Shown here piece by piece: positions 5,822 to 22,420 of a DNA stretch of 64,000 nucleotides; position 1 is the first letter of the stretch, and each line of letters starts with the position of its first letter. The translations under genes were made by a program, and so were the position numbers. This stretch comes from an uncultured Clostridia bacterium (GTDB lineage Bacteria > Bacillota > Clostridia > Lachnospirales > Lachnospiraceae). The notes below the pieces were generated by a model that was given only the letters and a program-made list of their open reading frames with translations, was not told where the DNA came from and searched no databases. The DNA lies in contig CALBNS010000087.1 of the NCBI GenBank assembly GCA_937896665.1, forward strand, positions 38,375 through 102,374, given 5' to 3'.

Positions 5822-5832
5822 GAGTGTGTAAG

Positions 5833-6672
5833 ATGGCAGAACAAGAGAATAATACATCATGTTCGGCAGAAAGTTGTTCGGGATGTGAACATGCAGGAAG
5901 CTGTGCAAGCAAAAAAGATGATTTGAAAGTAGCACCGAATCAATACACAACAGTGAAAAAGGTGATTGGTGTAATCAGTGGTAAAGGCGGAGTAGGAAAA
6001 TCTATGGTAACTGCTTCTCTGGCAAGATTGATGAGAGAACAGGGATATTCTGTGGGAATTTTAGATGCTGATATTACAGGACCTTCTATTCCGAAAATGT
6101 ATGGAATTCATGAACATGCAGTAGGAAACGAAATGGGAATGTTTCCTTGCATCGCAGAGGATGGCACTAGAATTATGTCAATCAACCTATTACTCGAAGA
6201 TGAGGAGATGCCGGTTATCTGGAGAGGTCCGGTAATTGCAGGTGTTGTTACACAATTTTGGAATGAAGTATTGTGGGGCGATTTGGACTACTTATTTGTA
6301 GATATGCCGCCCGGAACAGGGGATGTTCCGCTGACTGTATTCCAGTCTCTTCCGGTGGATGGGGTTGTAATTGTATCTTCACCACAGGATTTGGTACAAA
6401 TGATTGTGAAAAAAGCGTATTATATGGCGAGACAGATGAATATTCCAATCCTGGGAGTTGTAGAAAATTACAGTTACTTAGAGTGTCCGGATTGCGGCAA
6501 AAAGCTTTCTGTATTCGGTGAAAGCCATATCGACGAAATAGCAGCTGACCTAGGATTAGATGTTCTTGGAAAGATGCCAATCGATCCTAAACTTACAGAG
6601 ATGGTTGCAGAAGAGAGGTTTTACGAGGTAGAAAATCACTATCTGAAAGATGCAGTTGTAAAATTAAAATAA
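5833..6672 (+). CDS. mrp: Mrp/NBP35/ApbC-family Fe-S cluster carrier ATPase
   Basis: Deviant Walker A SGKGGVGKS, a ParA-like fold and CPDC near the C-terminus. N-terminal Cys cluster CSAESCSGCEHAGSC. ATG 5833 lies 8 nt after AGGAG; the track start is GTG 5824. Confidence 0.9.
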   Translation: MAEQENNTSCSAESCSGCEHAGSCASKKDDLKVAPNQYTTVKKVIGVISGKGGVGKSMVTASLARLMREQGYSVGILDADITGPSIPKMYGIHEHAVGNEMGMFPCIAEDGTRIMSINLLLEDEEMPVIWRGPVIAGVVTQFWNEVLWGDLDYLFVDMPPGTGDVPLTVFQSLPVDGVVIVSSPQDLVQMIVKKAYYMARQMNIPILGVVENYSYLECPDCGKKLSVFGESHIDEIAADLGLDVLGKMPIDPKLTEMVAEERFYEVENHYLKDAVVKLK

Positions 6673-6675
6673 TGA

Positions 6676-6726
6676 ATAGAAATTGGGGACGTTGTAAATT
6701 CATTTTACTGTGTCCCTAATTTCTAT
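6676..6726. repeat. 15-bp inverted repeat with a 21-nt spacer upstream of the radical-SAM operon
   Basis: atagaaattggggac (6676-6690) pairs with gtccctaatttctat (6712-6726), with one G.U pair. No T-run follows on either strand. Confidence 0.6.
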
Positions 6727-6754
6727 TGCAAACACCCGTTCGATATGTTATGAT
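6726..6754 (+). promoter_or_regulatory. Candidate sigmaA promoter of the radical-SAM/DUF4130/helicase operon
   Basis: TTGCAA at 6726-6731, 17-nt spacer, TGt-TATGAT extended -10 at 6746-6754. Confidence 0.5.
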
Positions 6755-6761
6755 ATAAAAA

Positions 6762-6775
6762 AGAACACATATTCG
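6762..6775. promoter_or_regulatory. Possible LexA (Cheo-type) box
   Basis: AGAAC-ACAT-ATTCG compared with Firmicute CGAAC-N4-GTTCG: one mismatch per half-site. It lies between the -10 and the RBS of the first gene. Confidence 0.3.
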
Positions 6776-6791
6776 AAAAGAGCGATGATTC

Positions 6792-8150
6792 ATGCAAATT
6801 ACAGAACAGATGTCAATCATGGAAAAACTGAATATTTTGTCTGATGCTGCAAAGTATGATGCTGCATGTACATCGAGTGGTACAGACCGTTTGAATGACG
6901 GTACAGGCATTGGAAACTGTGCGAAGGCAGGTATCTGTCATAGTTTTTCTGCAGATGGAAGATGTATTTCTTTGCTCAAGATTTTGTTTACAAATGAATG
7001 TATTTATGATTGTAAATATTGTATCAATCGTTCCTCGAATGATGTAAAACGAGTTTCATTTACGCCGGAGGAAGTGTGTACACTTACGATCGAATTCTAT
7101 CGACGAAATTATATTGAAGGGCTGTTTTTGAGTTCAGGTATTTTGAAAAGCCCGAATTATACGATGGAGCTGATTTATGCCACCCTTTATAAACTGAGAA
7201 CCGAATATCATTTTCAGGGGTATATACATGTGAAGGCAATACCGGGGGCGGATCAGGAACTGATTCAAAGAGTGGGGTTTCTGGCTGACAGGATGAGTGT
7301 GAATCTGGAACTTCCTACAGCGGAGGGGCTTAGAAAGCTGGCACCACACAAGAATCGTAAGAATATATTAACACCGATGCGGCTGGTGCAGAATGGAATT
7401 ATGGAGAATAAGCAGGAATTAATGGTATATAGAAAGGCTCCGAGATTTGTTCCCGCAGGGCAGAGTACACAGATGATCATAGGTGCAACACCTGACAGTG
7501 ACTTTCAGATTTTAAACGTTGCAGAGGCACTTTATAAAAGATTCGGTTTAAAAAGAGTTTTTTATTCTGCTTTTATCCATGTAAATGAGGACTCGAACTT
7601 GCCAGTAAAAAAAGAAGAAGGACCACCGCTTCTGAGAGAACACCGTTTGTATCAGGCAGACTGGCTTTTGCGATATTATGGATTCGAGGCAAAGGAATTA
7701 TTAAGTGAAAAAAGTCCGAATTTCAATGTGCTGCTTGATCCCAAGTGTAATTGGGCATTAGAACATTTGGAAGAATTTCCAGTGGAAGTGAATAAGGCGG
7801 ACTATTACACGTTGATGCGGGTTCCGGGGATAGGATATAAGTCTGCACAGAGGATTGTCAAAGCAAGGCGCATGGGAGTATTAGACTTTCCAGATTTGAA
7901 GAAATTTGGTGTGGTGCTGAAGCGTGCGATGTATTTTCTGACTTGCAATGGAAGGATGATGTATCCGACGAGGATTGAGCAGGATTATATATTGCGCAAC
8001 CTGTTAAACACAGGAGAAAGGTTTCCTGCGACAGTGGAACAGATGAGTTATAGGCAGATTTCTCTGTTTGATGATGTGAATTTCCGAAACGAGCAGTTTG
8101 TACTTCAGAAAGGGCAGAAGAAGACTGTTATTGAGCAGATGTTGGGATAG
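6792..8150 (+). CDS. Putative DNA modification/repair radical SAM protein (TIGR03916-type)
   Basis: CIYDCKYC radical-SAM triad (nt 6999-7022), AKYDAAC N-terminus with extra Cys residues, and a C-terminal helix-hairpin-helix-like MRVPGIGYKSAQRIV. Confidence 0.85.
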   Translation: MQITEQMSIMEKLNILSDAAKYDAACTSSGTDRLNDGTGIGNCAKAGICHSFSADGRCISLLKILFTNECIYDCKYCINRSSNDVKRVSFTPEEVCTLTIEFYRRNYIEGLFLSSGILKSPNYTMELIYATLYKLRTEYHFQGYIHVKAIPGADQELIQRVGFLADRMSVNLELPTAEGLRKLAPHKNRKNILTPMRLVQNGIMENKQELMVYRKAPRFVPAGQSTQMIIGATPDSDFQILNVAEALYKRFGLKRVFYSAFIHVNEDSNLPVKKEEGPPLLREHRLYQADWLLRYYGFEAKELLSEKSPNFNVLLDPKCNWALEHLEEFPVEVNKADYYTLMRVPGIGYKSAQRIVKARRMGVLDFPDLKKFGVVLKRAMYFLTCNGRMMYPTRIEQDYILRNLLNTGERFPATVEQMSYRQISLFDDVNFRNEQFVLQKGQKKTVIEQMLG

Positions 8151-8158
8151 GTGATGAC

Positions 8159-8923
8159 ATGAAAACAGTATATGTATGCGAAGATAGTGTGGCTGGGATT
8201 TTTTCGGCAATTTATGATGCATGGAAAACAAAGCGTAGAGAGGAACAATTGGGAATTGTATTGCAGGGATTCATGTATCAGGAATTGTTTTGTGAATACG
8301 TAGAAGTAGAAACAAGTGTAAAGAAGTCAGTAGCTGTGGAGCAACTGATTAAGAAACATCTGAGTTATGATGCGTATTGGCATATTTATCATGCGCTTCT
8401 TTCAGATGATGAGAAAAAAGCAGATGCTGTTTTGGGAACTATGCTGGAGGCAAGACAGATAGCAGACAGTACAAAGATTATGCAGCATTTGACGCATGAC
8501 AAGGTACAGAAAGTTTTTGAACTCAGCCGGAAAGTTTCGAATGAGGCCCATTACTTTTTGGAATTGATTCGGTTTGCAGAGTTGGAAAATGGGGTATTAT
8601 TTTCGAAAATCGCTCCGAAAAGTCAGATATTGTCCTGTATAGGGGATCACTTTGCCAATCGGTTTCCTTTGGAAAATTTTATGATTTATGATGAGACACA
8701 CAGACAGTTTCTGGTGCACCAAAAGGAAAAGCAATGGGTATTAGTATGGGATGAAGAGTTGGATTTAGAAGCGGTTTCAAGGGTTTCTTATGCGGAAGGC
8801 GTATTTTCGGAGCTATGGAAGGATTTTTTTAAGAGTATCTCCATTAAAGAACGAGAGAATCCCAAACTGCAAAAACAACATCTGCCAATTCGTTTCCGGA
8901 GCAATATTGTAGAGTTTCAATAA
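8159..8923 (+). CDS. TIGR03915/DUF4130-type probable DNA metabolism protein (no UDG domain)
   Basis: Starts 8 nt after the radical-SAM gene. The N-terminus (VYVCEDSVAGIFSAIYDAW) and its size resemble the DUF4130 partner protein. Recognised from memory only. Confidence 0.7.
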   Translation: MKTVYVCEDSVAGIFSAIYDAWKTKRREEQLGIVLQGFMYQELFCEYVEVETSVKKSVAVEQLIKKHLSYDAYWHIYHALLSDDEKKADAVLGTMLEARQIADSTKIMQHLTHDKVQKVFELSRKVSNEAHYFLELIRFAELENGVLFSKIAPKSQILSCIGDHFANRFPLENFMIYDETHRQFLVHQKEKQWVLVWDEELDLEAVSRVSYAEGVFSELWKDFFKSISIKERENPKLQKQHLPIRFRSNIVEFQ

Positions 8924-8948
8924 AGTTATAAAGTGGGTATAAAAGTTT

Positions 8949-11300
8949 ATGGAGCAGGAAAAAGTAATTCGGATTTCTGTCCGAAATCTGGTAGAATTTC
9001 TTTTGCGAGAAGGAGATATTGACAATCGAACAGCAGGAACTTCCGACAAGGAGGCGATGCTGCTTGGCGGAAAAATTCATCGGAAAATACAGAGTCAGAT
9101 GGGTTCGAATTATCAGGCGGAGGTTTCTTTGAAAATGCAGTTTCCATGTGACGGGTTTATGCTGCAGGTAGAAGGAAGAGCTGACGGCATTCAGAAATCA
9201 GAGGATGGAGTTCTTATTGATGAAATTAAAGGTATTCTAAAGGAATTAGAGCACATTGAGCAGCCGGTGCCTGTTCATCTTGCACAGGCAAAGTGCTATG
9301 CCTGTATTTATGGCATGCAGAACAATTTATCAGAAATGACGGTGCAGATGACATATTGTCAGATGGAAACAGAAGAAATTAAGCGTTTTCAAGAGCGATA
9401 TGATATGGATACGTTAAAAGAATGGTTTTTTGCGCTGGTTTCGCAATACGAAAAATGGGCTAAGTTTCAGATGGAGTGGCAAAAAGCAAGAAATGCCTCA
9501 ATTAAGCAGATACAATTTCCGTATGTGTATCGTGATGGACAGAAGGAATTAGTGACATCGGTTTACCGGACAATTCTGCGTAAAAAGAAACTGTTTATTC
9601 AGGCCCCTACAGGAGTTGGCAAAACAATGGCGACCGTCTTCCCGGCAGTAAAAGCAGTTGGTGAAGAATTGGGTGACAAAATATTTTATCTGACTGCCAA
9701 GACAATTGCAAGAACAGTCGCAGAACAGGCATTTCAGATTTTAAAGCAGGGTGGATTACAATATAAAGTGATTTCACTGACTGCTAAAGATAAGATTTGC
9801 TTCTGTGAAGAGACGAAATGTAATCCGGAGTATTGTCCATATGCAAAAGGACATTATGACAGGGTGAATGATGCAATTTATGAAATGCTTACGGAAACGA
9901 ACGACATGAGTCGTGAAAACATTGAAAGCCATGCAAAGAAGCACAATGTCTGTCCGTTTGAAATGGCGTTAGATCTCTCATTGTGGGTAGATGCAGTGAT
10001 TTGTGACTATAACTATGTTTTTGATCCAAATGCGCATTTAAAACGATTTTTTACAGAAGGCAAAAAAGGTGAATATTTGTTTTTGATTGATGAGGCCCAT
10101 AATCTGGTAGAACGTGGTCGTGAGATGTATAGTTCAGTACTTTATAAAGGAGCATTCTTAAGTGTGAAGAAAAAAGTGAAGTATGAAAGTATGAAACTGG
10201 CACGTTATCTGGATGCCTGTAATCGGGATTTCCTAGAATGGAAAAGAGAGAGTACTTCTTATCAGATTCACAACAGTATTTCACATTTTGTATTGAAGCT
10301 GATGAATGTCTTTGGCGAACTGGAAAAGCTGATGGAAGCACAAGATGAAGTGGATGAAGAGGTGCTGGAATTTTATTTCAGTATACGGTCATTTTTGAAT
10401 ATTTATGAAGAGATAGATGAGAATTATGTGATTTATACAGAGCCGGAGGAAGAACGGTTTAAAATCAAGTTATTCTGCGTGAATCCCGCAAGGAATCTAC
10501 AGAAATTTCTAGAACAGGGGAACAGTACAATTTTCTTCTCGGCTACATTTTTGCCGATTACTTATTATAAAAAGCTATTAAGTATAGAGACGGATGACTA
10601 TGCAGTTTATGCACATTCTCCGTTTGAGGAGAAAAACAGACTCTTATTAATCGGTAATGATGTGAGTACACGCTACACGAGAAGAAATCAGGTAATGTAT
10701 GAACGGTATGCTGAGTATATCACTCAAACTATTAATATACAAAAAGGAAATTATCTGGTATTTTTTCCTTCTTATCGTTTCATGGAAGATGTATGGGAAT
10801 GTTTTCAAAAATATGTTTCAGAAGATATACATTGTATGATACAAGACCAGTATATGAATGAAGAAAAGAGAGAAATATTTTTGGGGGAATTCGAAGAAAA
10901 GAGAGAAAATAGTTTAGTTGGGTTCTGTGTGATGGGTGGCATCTTTTCAGAAGGTATCGATTTGGCAGAGGAACGGTTAATTGGTGCAATGATTGTAGGA
11001 ACAGGACTTCCACAAATCTGTAATGAGAGAGAAATATTGAAGCAGTATTTTGAAAAACAGGGGGAGAGAGGTTTTGATTATGCTTATCTTTATCCGGGGA
11101 TGAATAAAGTGCTTCAGGCAGCAGGTCGTGTAATTAGAACGGAACGAGACAAAGGGATTGTTGCACTTTTAGACGAACGATTTCAGGAGAAACAATATAT
11201 GGAAATTTTTCCAAGGGAGTGGAAGCACGTAGAAGTGTGTAATCTTCATTCGGCGAAAGATACAATAAAGGATTTCTGGGAAAAAGCTTATACCGAATGA
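8949..11300 (+). CDS. PD-(D/E)XK nuclease domain fused to an XPD/DinG (Rad3)-type Fe-S DNA helicase
   Basis: N-terminal RecB-like motifs GRADG (D79), IDEIK (D91/E92/K94) and QAKCY (Q113/Y117). Walker A APTGVGKT, a Cys cluster CFCEETKCNPEYCP...CPFE between Walker A and DEAH (LIDEAHNL), and a C-terminal helicase_C_2-like QAAGRVIR. Confidence 0.85.
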   Translation: MEQEKVIRISVRNLVEFLLREGDIDNRTAGTSDKEAMLLGGKIHRKIQSQMGSNYQAEVSLKMQFPCDGFMLQVEGRADGIQKSEDGVLIDEIKGILKELEHIEQPVPVHLAQAKCYACIYGMQNNLSEMTVQMTYCQMETEEIKRFQERYDMDTLKEWFFALVSQYEKWAKFQMEWQKARNASIKQIQFPYVYRDGQKELVTSVYRTILRKKKLFIQAPTGVGKTMATVFPAVKAVGEELGDKIFYLTAKTIARTVAEQAFQILKQGGLQYKVISLTAKDKICFCEETKCNPEYCPYAKGHYDRVNDAIYEMLTETNDMSRENIESHAKKHNVCPFEMALDLSLWVDAVICDYNYVFDPNAHLKRFFTEGKKGEYLFLIDEAHNLVERGREMYSSVLYKGAFLSVKKKVKYESMKLARYLDACNRDFLEWKRESTSYQIHNSISHFVLKLMNVFGELEKLMEAQDEVDEEVLEFYFSIRSFLNIYEEIDENYVIYTEPEEERFKIKLFCVNPARNLQKFLEQGNSTIFFSATFLPITYYKKLLSIETDDYAVYAHSPFEEKNRLLLIGNDVSTRYTRRNQVMYERYAEYITQTINIQKGNYLVFFPSYRFMEDVWECFQKYVSEDIHCMIQDQYMNEEKREIFLGEFEEKRENSLVGFCVMGGIFSEGIDLAEERLIGAMIVGTGLPQICNEREILKQYFEKQGERGFDYAYLYPGMNKVLQAAGRVIRTERDKGIVALLDERFQEKQYMEIFPREWKHVEVCNLHSAKDTIKDFWEKAYTE

Positions 11301-11322: not shown

Positions 11323-12207
11323 TTATCTTTCAATATTAAAATAGTTTAGAAATTCCCAGGCGGCCTTTGAAATAGGTACGTGTTCGTTGTATACAACGGC
11401 TAGTTGTCTGGCGGGCAGGACTTCTTTCGTTTTTACAGTGAACAGTTCATCGGATTGTTGTGGAACAGAATAATCCGGCACAAAGGCAATGCCAAGTCCG
11501 ATTTTTGCAAGATCAAGCAGAAAATCATTGCTGCTGAGTTCTATTTCGGGAACCAAATCAAGTTGATGCTGTTGGAACATACTGTGTAGAAATTCACTTG
11601 TTGTGCTTCGCCTGTCAAGCATCAGGATTGGGTAATCCAGCAAATCTTTGAGAGATAGCGCCTTGTCTTTTAATTCTGAAAAGGCTTTGCCAGCGACAAA
11701 ACAATCTTGAAAATCAGCTATTTTTTTAAAGGTATAAAGGTTATTCAAGTGGGAATTCGGATAGTTGACTACAATTAAATCTACTTGTCCGGTTTCTAAT
11801 AATTCTACACATTTGAGAGAAGTCTGGTTCGTAACTTTGATATGTGTATTAGGAAATTCCTTGTGAAATCTTTTCAGATAAGGCACAAGAAAATATCGAC
11901 AAATGGTGTCGCTTGCACCGATACGGATCTGACCACCGGTAGAACCCGCCTCCATGAGCTGTGTTTCACCACGTTTAATCAGATTCATAGCAGGTTCTAT
12001 ATGGCGCAGAAGAATTTCACCTTCTGGTGTCAGCTGTACTCGTTTTGTACTTCTGATAAACAGAGTCTGATCCAATTTTTTTTCTAATGCTTTGATAGAC
12101 TGGCTTACTGCTGACTGTGAAATAAACAGTTGTTTGGATGCTTCTGAGAAGCTAAGAGTAGTTGCAACATAAAAAAATACTTTATACAATTCATAATTAA
12201 TATCCAT
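11323..12207 (-). CDS. LysR-family transcriptional regulator
   Basis: N-terminal HTH (FSEASKQLFISQSAVSQSIKALE) plus a LysR substrate-binding domain. AAGGAGGG RBS. Divergent from purL. Confidence 0.9.
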   Translation of the reverse strand: MDINYELYKVFFYVATTLSFSEASKQLFISQSAVSQSIKALEKKLDQTLFIRSTKRVQLTPEGEILLRHIEPAMNLIKRGETQLMEAGSTGGQIRIGASDTICRYFLVPYLKRFHKEFPNTHIKVTNQTSLKCVELLETGQVDLIVVNYPNSHLNNLYTFKKIADFQDCFVAGKAFSELKDKALSLKDLLDYPILMLDRRSTTSEFLHSMFQQHQLDLVPEIELSSNDFLLDLAKIGLGIAFVPDYSVPQQSDELFTVKTKEVLPARQLAVVYNEHVPISKAAWEFLNYFNIER

Positions 12208-22024: not shown

Positions 22025-22048
22025 AAGTAAGTCGGTTGGCGATAATTT

Positions 22049-22121
22049 GGGATCATAGCTCAGCTGGGAGAGCACCTGCCTTACAAGCAGGGGGTCACAG
22101 GTTCGAGCCCTGTTGGTCCCA
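22049..22121 (+). tRNA. tRNA-Val (anticodon TAC)
   Basis: Cloverleaf folded by hand: acceptor GGGATCA/TGGTCCC, anticodon loop CTTACAA, T-loop GGTTCGAGCC. No encoded CCA. Confidence 0.95.
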
Positions 22122-22151
22122 CTACTAGGAAACTAGTGAATAATTGAATAT

Positions 22152-22225
22152 GGCGGGATAGCTCAGTTGGCTAGAGCACACGGTTCATACCCGTGGTGTC
22201 GCTGGTTCAAATCCAGTTCCCGCTA
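22152..22225 (+). tRNA. tRNA-Met (anticodon CAT, elongator-like)
   Basis: Acceptor GGCGGGA/TCCCGCT, anticodon arm CACGG-TTCATAC-CCGTG, T-loop TTCAAAT. It lacks the initiator 1:72 mismatch and the 3-GC anticodon stem. No encoded CCA. Confidence 0.9.
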
Positions 22226-22233
22226 CTTATCTT

Positions 22234-22306
22234 GGGATCATAGCTCAGCTGGGAGAGCACCTGCCTTACAAGCAGGGGGTCACAGGTTCGAGCCCTGTTG
22301 GTCCCA
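22234..22306 (+). tRNA. tRNA-Val (anticodon TAC), identical second copy
   Basis: Identical in sequence to 22049-22121. Confidence 0.95.
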
Positions 22307-22336
22307 CTACTAGGAAACTAGTGAATAATTGAATAT

Positions 22337-22410
22337 GGCGGGATAGCTCAGTTGGCTAGAGCACACGGTTCATACCCGTGGTGTCGCTGGTTCAAATCCA
22401 GTTCCCGCTA
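22337..22410 (+). tRNA. tRNA-Met (anticodon CAT), identical second copy
   Basis: Identical in sequence to 22152-22225. Confidence 0.9.
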
Positions 22411-22420
22411 CTGAAGTGAG

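Follow-up and report, generated by a model that had tools for sequence, protein, structure and literature searches.

A probable SOS operon of a radical SAM/DUF4130 gene pair, joined in some Lachnospiraceae lineages to an EndoDinG nuclease-helicase gene

A 64,000-nucleotide stretch of an uncultured Clostridia bacterium affiliated with the Lachnospiraceae (assembly GCA_937896665.1, contig CALBNS010000087.1, positions 38,375 to 102,374 of the forward strand; hereafter the window, to which all positions without a locus label refer) encodes three closely spaced genes on the plus strand. ORF1 (6792-8150, 452 aa) is a radical S-adenosylmethionine (SAM) protein of family TIGR03916, ORF2 (8159-8923, 254 aa) its DUF4130 partner of family TIGR03915, and ORF3 (8949-11300, 783 aa) a nuclease-helicase of the EndoDinG type. 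The initial annotation of the window had described these three same-strand ORFs, and both their coordinates and the gaps of 8 nt (ORF1/ORF2) and 25 nt (ORF2/ORF3) were reproduced here. We propose that the block is probably a LexA-repressed (SOS) operon in which two independent units, the ORF1-ORF2 pair and EndoDinG, have been joined in the lineage of the window. The three-gene operon is a lineage-specific, recurrent operon fusion of known parts, not a conserved module. This reading builds on the observed family assignments, on catalytic residues and operators that are conserved, and on two locus architectures with their distribution; LexA binding, co-transcription and any biochemical cooperation of EndoDinG with the pair are inferred.

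The promoter-like element in front of ORF1 (6726-6754, plus strand), already reported in the initial annotation, was recovered by a promoter scan as a sigma-70-type TTGCAA-17-TATGAT with a TG extension. Absent from the earlier description are two Cheo-type LexA boxes that bracket this promoter and were detected by pattern scan and conservation. Box 1 (AAACACCCGTTC, 6730-6741) lies over the -35 hexamer, and box 2 (GAACACATATTC, 6763-6774) is located 9 nt downstream of the -10 hexamer. On the reverse strand box 1 reads GAACGGGTGTTT, which conforms exactly to GAACnnnnGTTT, the operator form of clostridial lexA, recA and ruvC (PMC4234289). In locus L001, from a relative with 73% identity, both boxes are conserved islands in which the half-sites are unchanged and the spacers changed, and the -35 region is likewise kept despite the diverged surrounding DNA.

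Across related loci, boxes with at most one mismatch were sought within 200 nt upstream of the radical SAM gene and were found in 27 of 27 genome loci and 74 of 79 metagenome loci. After duplicate removal, at least one box was present in 100 of 104 distinct promoters and at least two in 76 of 104, compared to an expectation of 0.08 per region. Furthermore, the positions of these boxes that were not used for selection (spacer and flanks) yield the classical Cheo consensus cGAACATATGTTCg. The arrangement agrees with the operator of the Gram-positive LexA regulon, GAAC-N4-GTTC/T placed over the promoter and conserved in orthologous promoters, and LexA is predicted to bind both boxes in the window. 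SOS control of this type of operon has been described for Verrucomicrobia, Alphaproteobacteria and Bacteroidetes (PMC8565304), and the pair is damage-inducible in Acinetobacter (PMC12392091). As SOS control has thus been reported in other phyla, the result for the window adds Clostridia, and a form of the pair lacking a uracil-DNA glycosylase (UDG) domain, to a known pattern. On the comparative evidence, this UDG-less clostridial pair is predicted to be a core member of the LexA regulon with a dual Cheo-box promoter.

The assignment of ORF1 and ORF2 proposed in the initial annotation was borne out by profile searches, with both proteins scoring far above the curated NCBIfam cutoffs. ORF1 matches TIGR03916 with 697.4 bits (cutoff 343.5) over the complete profile (1-415 of 415, residues 9-426) and contains the Pfam domains Radical_SAM, Fer4_12 and HHH_3. 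All features previously noted in this protein are present: the radical SAM CxxxCxxC triad (C70/C74/C77, nt 6999-7022), four further cysteines upstream of it (C26, C43, C49 and C58) and a C-terminal helix-hairpin-helix (HhH) motif (HHH_3, residues 330-361, nt 7779-7874). C26, C49, C58, C70, C74 and C77 are invariant in 10 ORF1 orthologs. ORF2 matches TIGR03915 with 232.2 bits (cutoff 112.25; profile 1-243 on residues 5-253 of 254) and PF13566 (DUF4130) with 152.3 bits (cutoff 27). As the TIGR03915 profile spans nearly the entire protein, ORF2 carries no UDG domain, which upholds its earlier description as a DUF4130 partner without this domain; none of 98 sampled clostridial orthologs has a UDG-sized extension on DUF4130. 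A TIGR03916 protein is expected always to have a TIGR03915 gene as partner, and ORF2 directly downstream of ORF1 follows this rule. Likewise, a DUF4130 gene follows the radical SAM gene in essentially all related loci with enough downstream sequence.

Neither ORF1 (best E = 0.11 and 0.22) nor ORF2 had a meaningful match among solved structures, and a single-sequence AlphaFold2 model of ORF1 had a mean pLDDT (predicted local distance difference test) of 34.4, too low to use. A preprint (bioRxiv 10.64898/2026.08.19.745780) describes an AlphaFold 3 (AF3) model of a close Lachnospiraceae ortholog pair that reached strict confidence. In this model, a SAM pocket is located at the triad equivalent to C70/C74/C77, DUF4130 adopts a RecJ-like nucleotide-binding fold without catalytic residues, and the channel is narrow and favours single-stranded nucleic acid. 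The view of the initial annotation that no reaction has been defined for the pair is supported by the preprint and by earlier literature (PMC3765255), and the pair is among the most widespread DNA-damage-linked gene pairs still without a known reaction. In the N-terminal segment of ORF1 (residues 1-58, window 6792-6965), C26, C49, C58 and the adjacent H50 are invariant in the 10 orthologs, which suggests a second metal or Fe-S site; no discussion of such a site was found in the accessible portion of the preprint. In-frame stops occur in the radical SAM gene of two loci from metagenome-assembled genomes (L014:502-1848 and L035:4985-6331) and in the EndoDinG gene of one locus (L006:3237-5570), and these could represent pseudogenes or assembly errors.

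ORF3 is, by homology, a member of the EndoDinG subgroup of DinG-like helicases. The initial annotation had recognized a PD-(D/E)XK nuclease fused to an XPD/DinG-type Fe-S helicase, and this composition was confirmed by Pfam matches to DEAD_2, HBB and Helicase_C_2 and by alignment of residues 4-759 with FmaDinG of Finegoldia magna (PDB 9KQH, E=3e-158); XPD structures match at about 1e-26. No Pfam model matches residues 1-190, which align with the PD-(D/E)XK domain of 9KQH and correspond to the endonuclease domain (8949-9518, plus strand), followed by the XPD/DinG-type SF2 helicase core with its Fe-S domain (9519-11300, plus strand). The nuclease domain contains the catalytic and substrate-binding residues R12, H44, E58, R77, D79, E92 and K94 and a QxxxY motif (Q113/Y117), of which H44, E58, D79, E92 and K94 align with H40, E54, D75, E88 and K90 of FmaDinG. 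Among 30 diverse EndoDinGs, the full catalytic and substrate-binding set is invariant or nearly so, with H44, E58, D79, E92, K94, Q113 and Y117 kept in every protein. The four Fe-S cysteines (C284, C291, C296 and C335, nt 9798-9953) are invariant in the same 30 proteins, and the helicase motifs include Walker A (219-226) and DEAH (381-384).

FmaDinG, published in July 2026 with a crystal structure and biochemistry, is the first characterized EndoDinG. It joins a PD-(D/E)XK endonuclease for single-stranded DNA (ssDNA), which prefers Mn2+, to an XPD-type Fe-S helicase that depends on Mg2+ and works 5'-3' (PMC13650095). ORF3 is therefore a fusion of an already characterized type. The residues whose mutation abolishes the FmaDinG nuclease are all kept in ORF3 (H44, E58, R77, D79, E92 and K94, plus R12; PMC13650095), and on the basis of these conserved residues ORF3 is predicted to have Mn2+-dependent ssDNA endonuclease and ATP-dependent 5'-3' helicase activity. 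According to its authors, the in vivo role of EndoDinG is unknown (PMC13650095), and neither that study nor the 2025 review that defined the EndoDinG subgroup mentions radical SAM proteins, DUF4130 or gene context. The family comprises 2535 representatives (50% clustering) at E<=1e-30, and the nearest named relatives of ORF3 are from Coprococcus phoceensis / Tyzzerella nexilis (73%) and Bariatricus (67%). One representative of 1192 aa from outside the window (P0142) carries an N-terminal HemW-like Radical_SAM+HemN_C region of ~390 aa. As hemW is usually found near the dnaK/dnaJ operon, which adjoins the window locus, a merged gene call is likelier than a true fusion. No other long representative has an additional domain, and the one in P0142 is not TIGR03916, so that a fusion protein of EndoDinG with the pair was discarded as a candidate.

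Loci carrying both the pair and EndoDinG fall into two architectures. A conserved ORF of ~75 aa, which resembles HPr (PF00381, 21-23.6 bits, borderline at a cutoff of 23), immediately precedes EndoDinG in 50 loci, of which 32 have the pair and 18 do not (for example L001:5661-5888, L026 at about 7661-7884 and L037 at about 7643-7866). It separates the pair from EndoDinG in 32 of the 55 loci that contain both units, and it is absent from the gap at 8924-8948 in the window. In Class I loci, the pair is followed by the HPr-like gene and EndoDinG, and in 27 of 32 the 200 nt ahead of the HPr-like gene contain a sigma-70 promoter (at least 10/12 matches), as exemplified by TTGACG-17-TATAAT in L001. 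Class II loci, the window among them, are compact, with gaps of 22-178 nt, and only 3 of 24 have a promoter of this quality within 200 nt upstream of EndoDinG, compared to 27 of 32 in Class I; promoter loss in the compact loci therefore looks real and recurrent. No LexA boxes were found upstream of the HPr-like/EndoDinG unit, either in 32 loci with the pair or in 18 without it, so that LexA boxes of EndoDinG's own were rejected (0 of 50). The regions upstream of EndoDinG in pair-less loci contain boxes in 10 of 51 cases, mostly poor ones.

In a neighbour-joining tree of 94 EndoDinGs, presence of the pair is strongly clade-structured, with 9 parsimony changes compared to ~32 for shuffled states and with the pair in three clades. 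Class II has evolved repeatedly (9 parsimony changes among 47 tips), and the sister of the window is a Class I locus, L001. We interpret EndoDinG as a unit that normally stands alone and outside SOS control, and propose that deletion of the HPr-like gene together with its promoter fused EndoDinG to the pair operon in several lineages. The two junctions within the window were described as free of a hairpin or T-run in the initial annotation, and a scan likewise gave no credible terminator or promoter at either of them. Because of the 25-nt gap without an internal promoter or terminator, the three genes in the window are predicted to form, most likely, one transcription unit.

The adjacency of these genes could also reflect a dedicated three-component repair machine, in which the pair performs lesion chemistry on DNA unwound and incised by EndoDinG and proximity is selected for a common substrate; the initial annotation had similarly envisaged a self-contained module. 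Same-strand, same-order adjacency in 55 loci from three Lachnospiraceae clades, flanks unlike those of the window in 18 of 27 pair-bearing genome loci, and the repeated emergence of the promoter-less Class II all speak for this explanation. In addition, the narrow ssDNA channel predicted in the preprint would profit from a helicase, and EndoDinG itself is without an assigned in vivo role. The distribution of the two units argues against it. In a forward census, in which a diverse EndoDinG alignment was searched against species-representative genomes (80 loci, almost all Lachnospiraceae, 45-67% identity), the pair was directly upstream on the same strand in 27 of 67 informative EndoDinG loci (40%) and missing in the other 40. 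As controls, purL was found within 8 kb of EndoDinG in ~28/80 loci (about 35%) and a convergent lysR in ~22/80 (about 28%), so that the pair is kept beside EndoDinG no better than functionally unrelated neighbours. In a reverse census of a radical SAM alignment against metagenome contigs (80 loci), EndoDinG followed the pair in 27 of ~66 informative loci and was missing in about 39. All 27 loci with EndoDinG have a radical SAM protein at least 66% identical to ORF1; EndoDinG was found in none of the ~28 loci with 56-65% identity and was also missing in 11 closer ones. Furthermore, no pair was detected within 6 kb of EndoDinG in any of four Tissierellia genera (Finegoldia, with the biochemical prototype F. 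magna, Gallicola, Anaerococcus and Tissierella). Helicase-pair adjacency is thus confined to three Lachnospiraceae clades, and the helicase occurs independently elsewhere, the outcome that the initial annotation had named as refuting its module; a radical SAM-DUF4130-helicase system conserved across lineages is not supported either. Class I EndoDinG keeps a separate promoter without LexA boxes, and no fusion of EndoDinG to TIGR03916 or DUF4130 was found among the long representatives checked. The occurrence of UDG fusions is not complementary to that of EndoDinG, since none of the sampled clostridial DUF4130 proteins is fused to UDG, whether EndoDinG is present or not; replacement of the UDG domain by EndoDinG was rejected as well. 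A dedicated three-component machine therefore appears doubtful, and true cooperation of EndoDinG with the pair is similarly doubtful.

Neutral synteny, with ORF3 under an undetected promoter of its own within ORF2 and the genes being neighbours without forming an operon, would be compatible with an adjacency retained no better than that of unrelated genes, with a weak promoter-like site within ORF2 (8573-8600, 9/12 match) and with the own EndoDinG promoter of most relatives. We consider it improbable in view of the terminator-free 25-nt gap and of the scarcity of upstream promoters in compact compared to Class I loci (3/24 and 27/32). A defence function, with ORF3 as a CRISPR type IV CasDinG-like protein and the block as an anti-phage system, is suggested by a 402.6-bit match of the PADLOC profile PDLC01439 ('typeIV_DinG; CAS-IV-A associated') to ORF3 residues 184-758. 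The Csf4 signature profile, however, reaches only 27.8 bits on ORF3, ORF1 and ORF2 are without PADLOC matches, the window contains neither a CRISPR array nor cas neighbours, and the locus is surrounded by the housekeeping genes hrcA-grpE-dnaK-dnaJ, ridA, mrp, lysR and purL. ORF3 also retains the four Fe-S cysteines that are missing in CasDinG (PMC13650095). The low Csf4 score, the intact cysteines and the lack of an array and cas genes effectively refute this explanation, leaving it with a negligible probability.

Several observations weigh against a LexA-controlled operon in the window. The 14-mer operator pattern at two mismatches is not enriched across the window, so the case for LexA control rests on comparative conservation. 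Moreover, each window box has one half-site mismatch (AAAC and ATTC), and repression could therefore be weak. An unconventional promoter within the 3' end of ORF2 could still be active, and the weak 9/12 site is a candidate. Expression and LexA binding in the window organism are predictions, and the chemistry of the pair is entirely deduced. Both censuses comprise the best 80 loci closest to the query, are biased to Lachnospiraceae, and view each locus as a local stretch rather than with the rest of its genome; of the distant EndoDinG lineages, which also include Bdellovibrionales, Calditrichales and others, the analysis covered Tissierellia.

Under the preferred reading of an SOS operon formed by fusion of two units, LexA would repress the promoter at 6726-6754, and DNA damage would lead, via RecA-stimulated LexA cleavage, to the expression of ORF1, ORF2 and, in the window genome, ORF3. 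By analogy to the published model, ORF1 and ORF2 may form a heterodimer, in which ssDNA would be held by the HhH domain and by DUF4130 with its RecJ-like nucleotide-binding channel. The [4Fe-4S]/SAM site could then generate a 5'-deoxyadenosyl radical to convert or reverse a damaged pyrimidine. This radical-mediated conversion or reversal in ssDNA would be the most likely chemistry of the pair, with low confidence in the specific lesion, and draws on analogies to spore photoproduct lyase and to the frequent DUF4130 fusion to family-4 UDG in other phyla. DNA is the likely substrate because of the HhH domain, the SOS control and these frequent UDG fusions. In most Lachnospiraceae, EndoDinG would be expressed from its own non-SOS promoter, often with the small HPr-like gene in front. 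The window genome and about 20 further lineages in the sample appear to have lost both the HPr-like gene and the EndoDinG promoter. Transcription of the window EndoDinG, immediately behind DUF4130, most likely depends on the LexA-controlled promoter alone, and the gene would consequently be damage-inducible. Once induced, EndoDinG could supply 5'-3' unwinding and ssDNA incision.

The pair and EndoDinG were both known before, and what is added here is comparative evidence for LexA control in Clostridia, a modest novelty. The locus reveals no new kind of system and leaves the chemistry of the pair undefined. Lineages with EndoDinG inside a predicted SOS operon, including that of the window, offer a testable hint of a damage-response role for this enzyme. 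One might go further and regard EndoDinG as the physiological unwinding and incision partner of the pair in the three Lachnospiraceae clades, with repeated promoter loss as a sign of selection for co-expression. We consider this unlikely; if true, EndoDinG would gain its first in vivo role, and the naturally occurring three-gene set would offer a way into the chemistry of the pair.

The small HPr-like gene that usually travels with EndoDinG was previously unremarked, and no mention of it was found in the EndoDinG papers; it is typically preceded by a promoter close to consensus. The encoded protein apparently lacks the His15 region, keeps a Ser46-like 'DAKSILGV' motif and may be a partner or regulator of EndoDinG. 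Downstream of the pair, no conserved alternative partner was identified where EndoDinG is absent (101 ORFs, 73 clusters). The largest cluster consists of a convergent TatD-family DNase gene (PF01026, 295 bits) right after DUF4130 in nine EndoDinG-less pair loci (L103, L105 at 9154-10005 on the minus strand, L107, L112 and five other metagenome loci). As it is encoded on the strand opposite to DUF4130, it lies outside the operon, and these loci may be from one species group. All four Tissierellia genera contain a U5-methyltransferase gene (RumA/RlmD-like, PF05958, tRNA/rRNA) downstream of EndoDinG (L162:8586-9914, L164:8333-9703, L165:8476-9831 and L163:13173-14304), which adjoins or overlaps EndoDinG in Anaerococcus and Tissierella and is one gene away in Finegoldia. 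In Lachnospiraceae the PF05958 gene is not adjacent to EndoDinG, and only three loci have a match, ~8.5 kb upstream.

The context of the locus is chromosomal and housekeeping. Upstream are hrcA-grpE-dnaK-dnaJ, ridA and a gene for a Mrp/ApbC Fe-S carrier, and purL is located downstream. The convergent LysR gene, which the initial annotation had given as the boundary of the block, was confirmed at 11323-12207, 22 nt beyond the third gene. The Mrp/ApbC-type Fe-S cluster carrier gene (5824-6672) lies immediately upstream of an operon coding for two Fe-S enzymes; as this neighbour is restricted to the clade of the window and a few other loci (L001-L003, L085, L086, L093, L101, L134 and others), it is probably plain synteny. 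Elsewhere in the window, a perfect 185-bp tandem duplication (22047-22412, 2.0 copies, 100% match) contains tRNA-Val(TAC) and tRNA-Met(CAT) genes in the order Val-Met-Val-Met.

Compared to other TIGR03916/TIGR03915 pairs, the first family of which we take to be equivalent to COG4277, the window shares the gene order, the tight spacing and the combination of radical SAM and HhH domains in ORF1. Elsewhere a family-4 UDG (COG1573) often accompanies the pair or is fused to it, and UDG fusions of DUF4130 are frequent (PMC3765255). The window, in contrast, has neither a UDG domain on DUF4130 nor a separate UDG gene adjacent; it also differs in its operator, a Gram-positive Cheo box in two copies, and in the helicase-nuclease gene appended to the operon in its lineage. 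The family containing ORF1 has been called 'SplB-like' (PMC3765255), and spore photoproduct lyase (SplB, COG1533) is the analogy used here for direct reversal of lesions by radical chemistry. Like ORF1, it is a radical SAM enzyme with links to DNA damage and to reported SOS regulons, whereas the HhH domain, the extra N-terminal cysteine cluster and the obligate DUF4130 partner are found on the ORF1 side. Membership of ORF1 in the SplB family itself was not supported, as an NCBIfam scan at E<=1e-3 returned TIGR03916 only and no SplB-named model.

FmaDinG is aligned with ORF3 over its full length. In both proteins a PD-(D/E)XK domain at the N-terminus precedes an XPD-like core of MD1, MD2 and Arch that carries an Fe-S domain, and they have all mutagenesis-tested nuclease residues and the four Fe-S cysteines in common. 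Their genomic settings differ: neither FmaDinG nor any other EndoDinG examined in Tissierellia is next to a radical SAM/DUF4130 pair, and the RumA-like U5-methyltransferase gene lies downstream instead, whereas ORF3 is apparently under a predicted LexA-controlled promoter. E. coli DinG/YoaA and ExoDinG, XPD-family helicases that are SOS-linked or fused to a nuclease, resemble ORF3 in their 5'-3' Fe-S helicase core. ORF3 nevertheless scores well under the DinG and YoaA family cutoffs (YoaA 120 compared to 680; DinG 91-101 compared to 598-789), and its nuclease is of the PD-(D/E)XK type and not DnaQ-like. As E. coli dinG is LexA-regulated, a damage-inducible DinG-like helicase has a precedent, although LexA control of the window EndoDinG would come by read-through from the promoter of the pair and not from an operator of its own.

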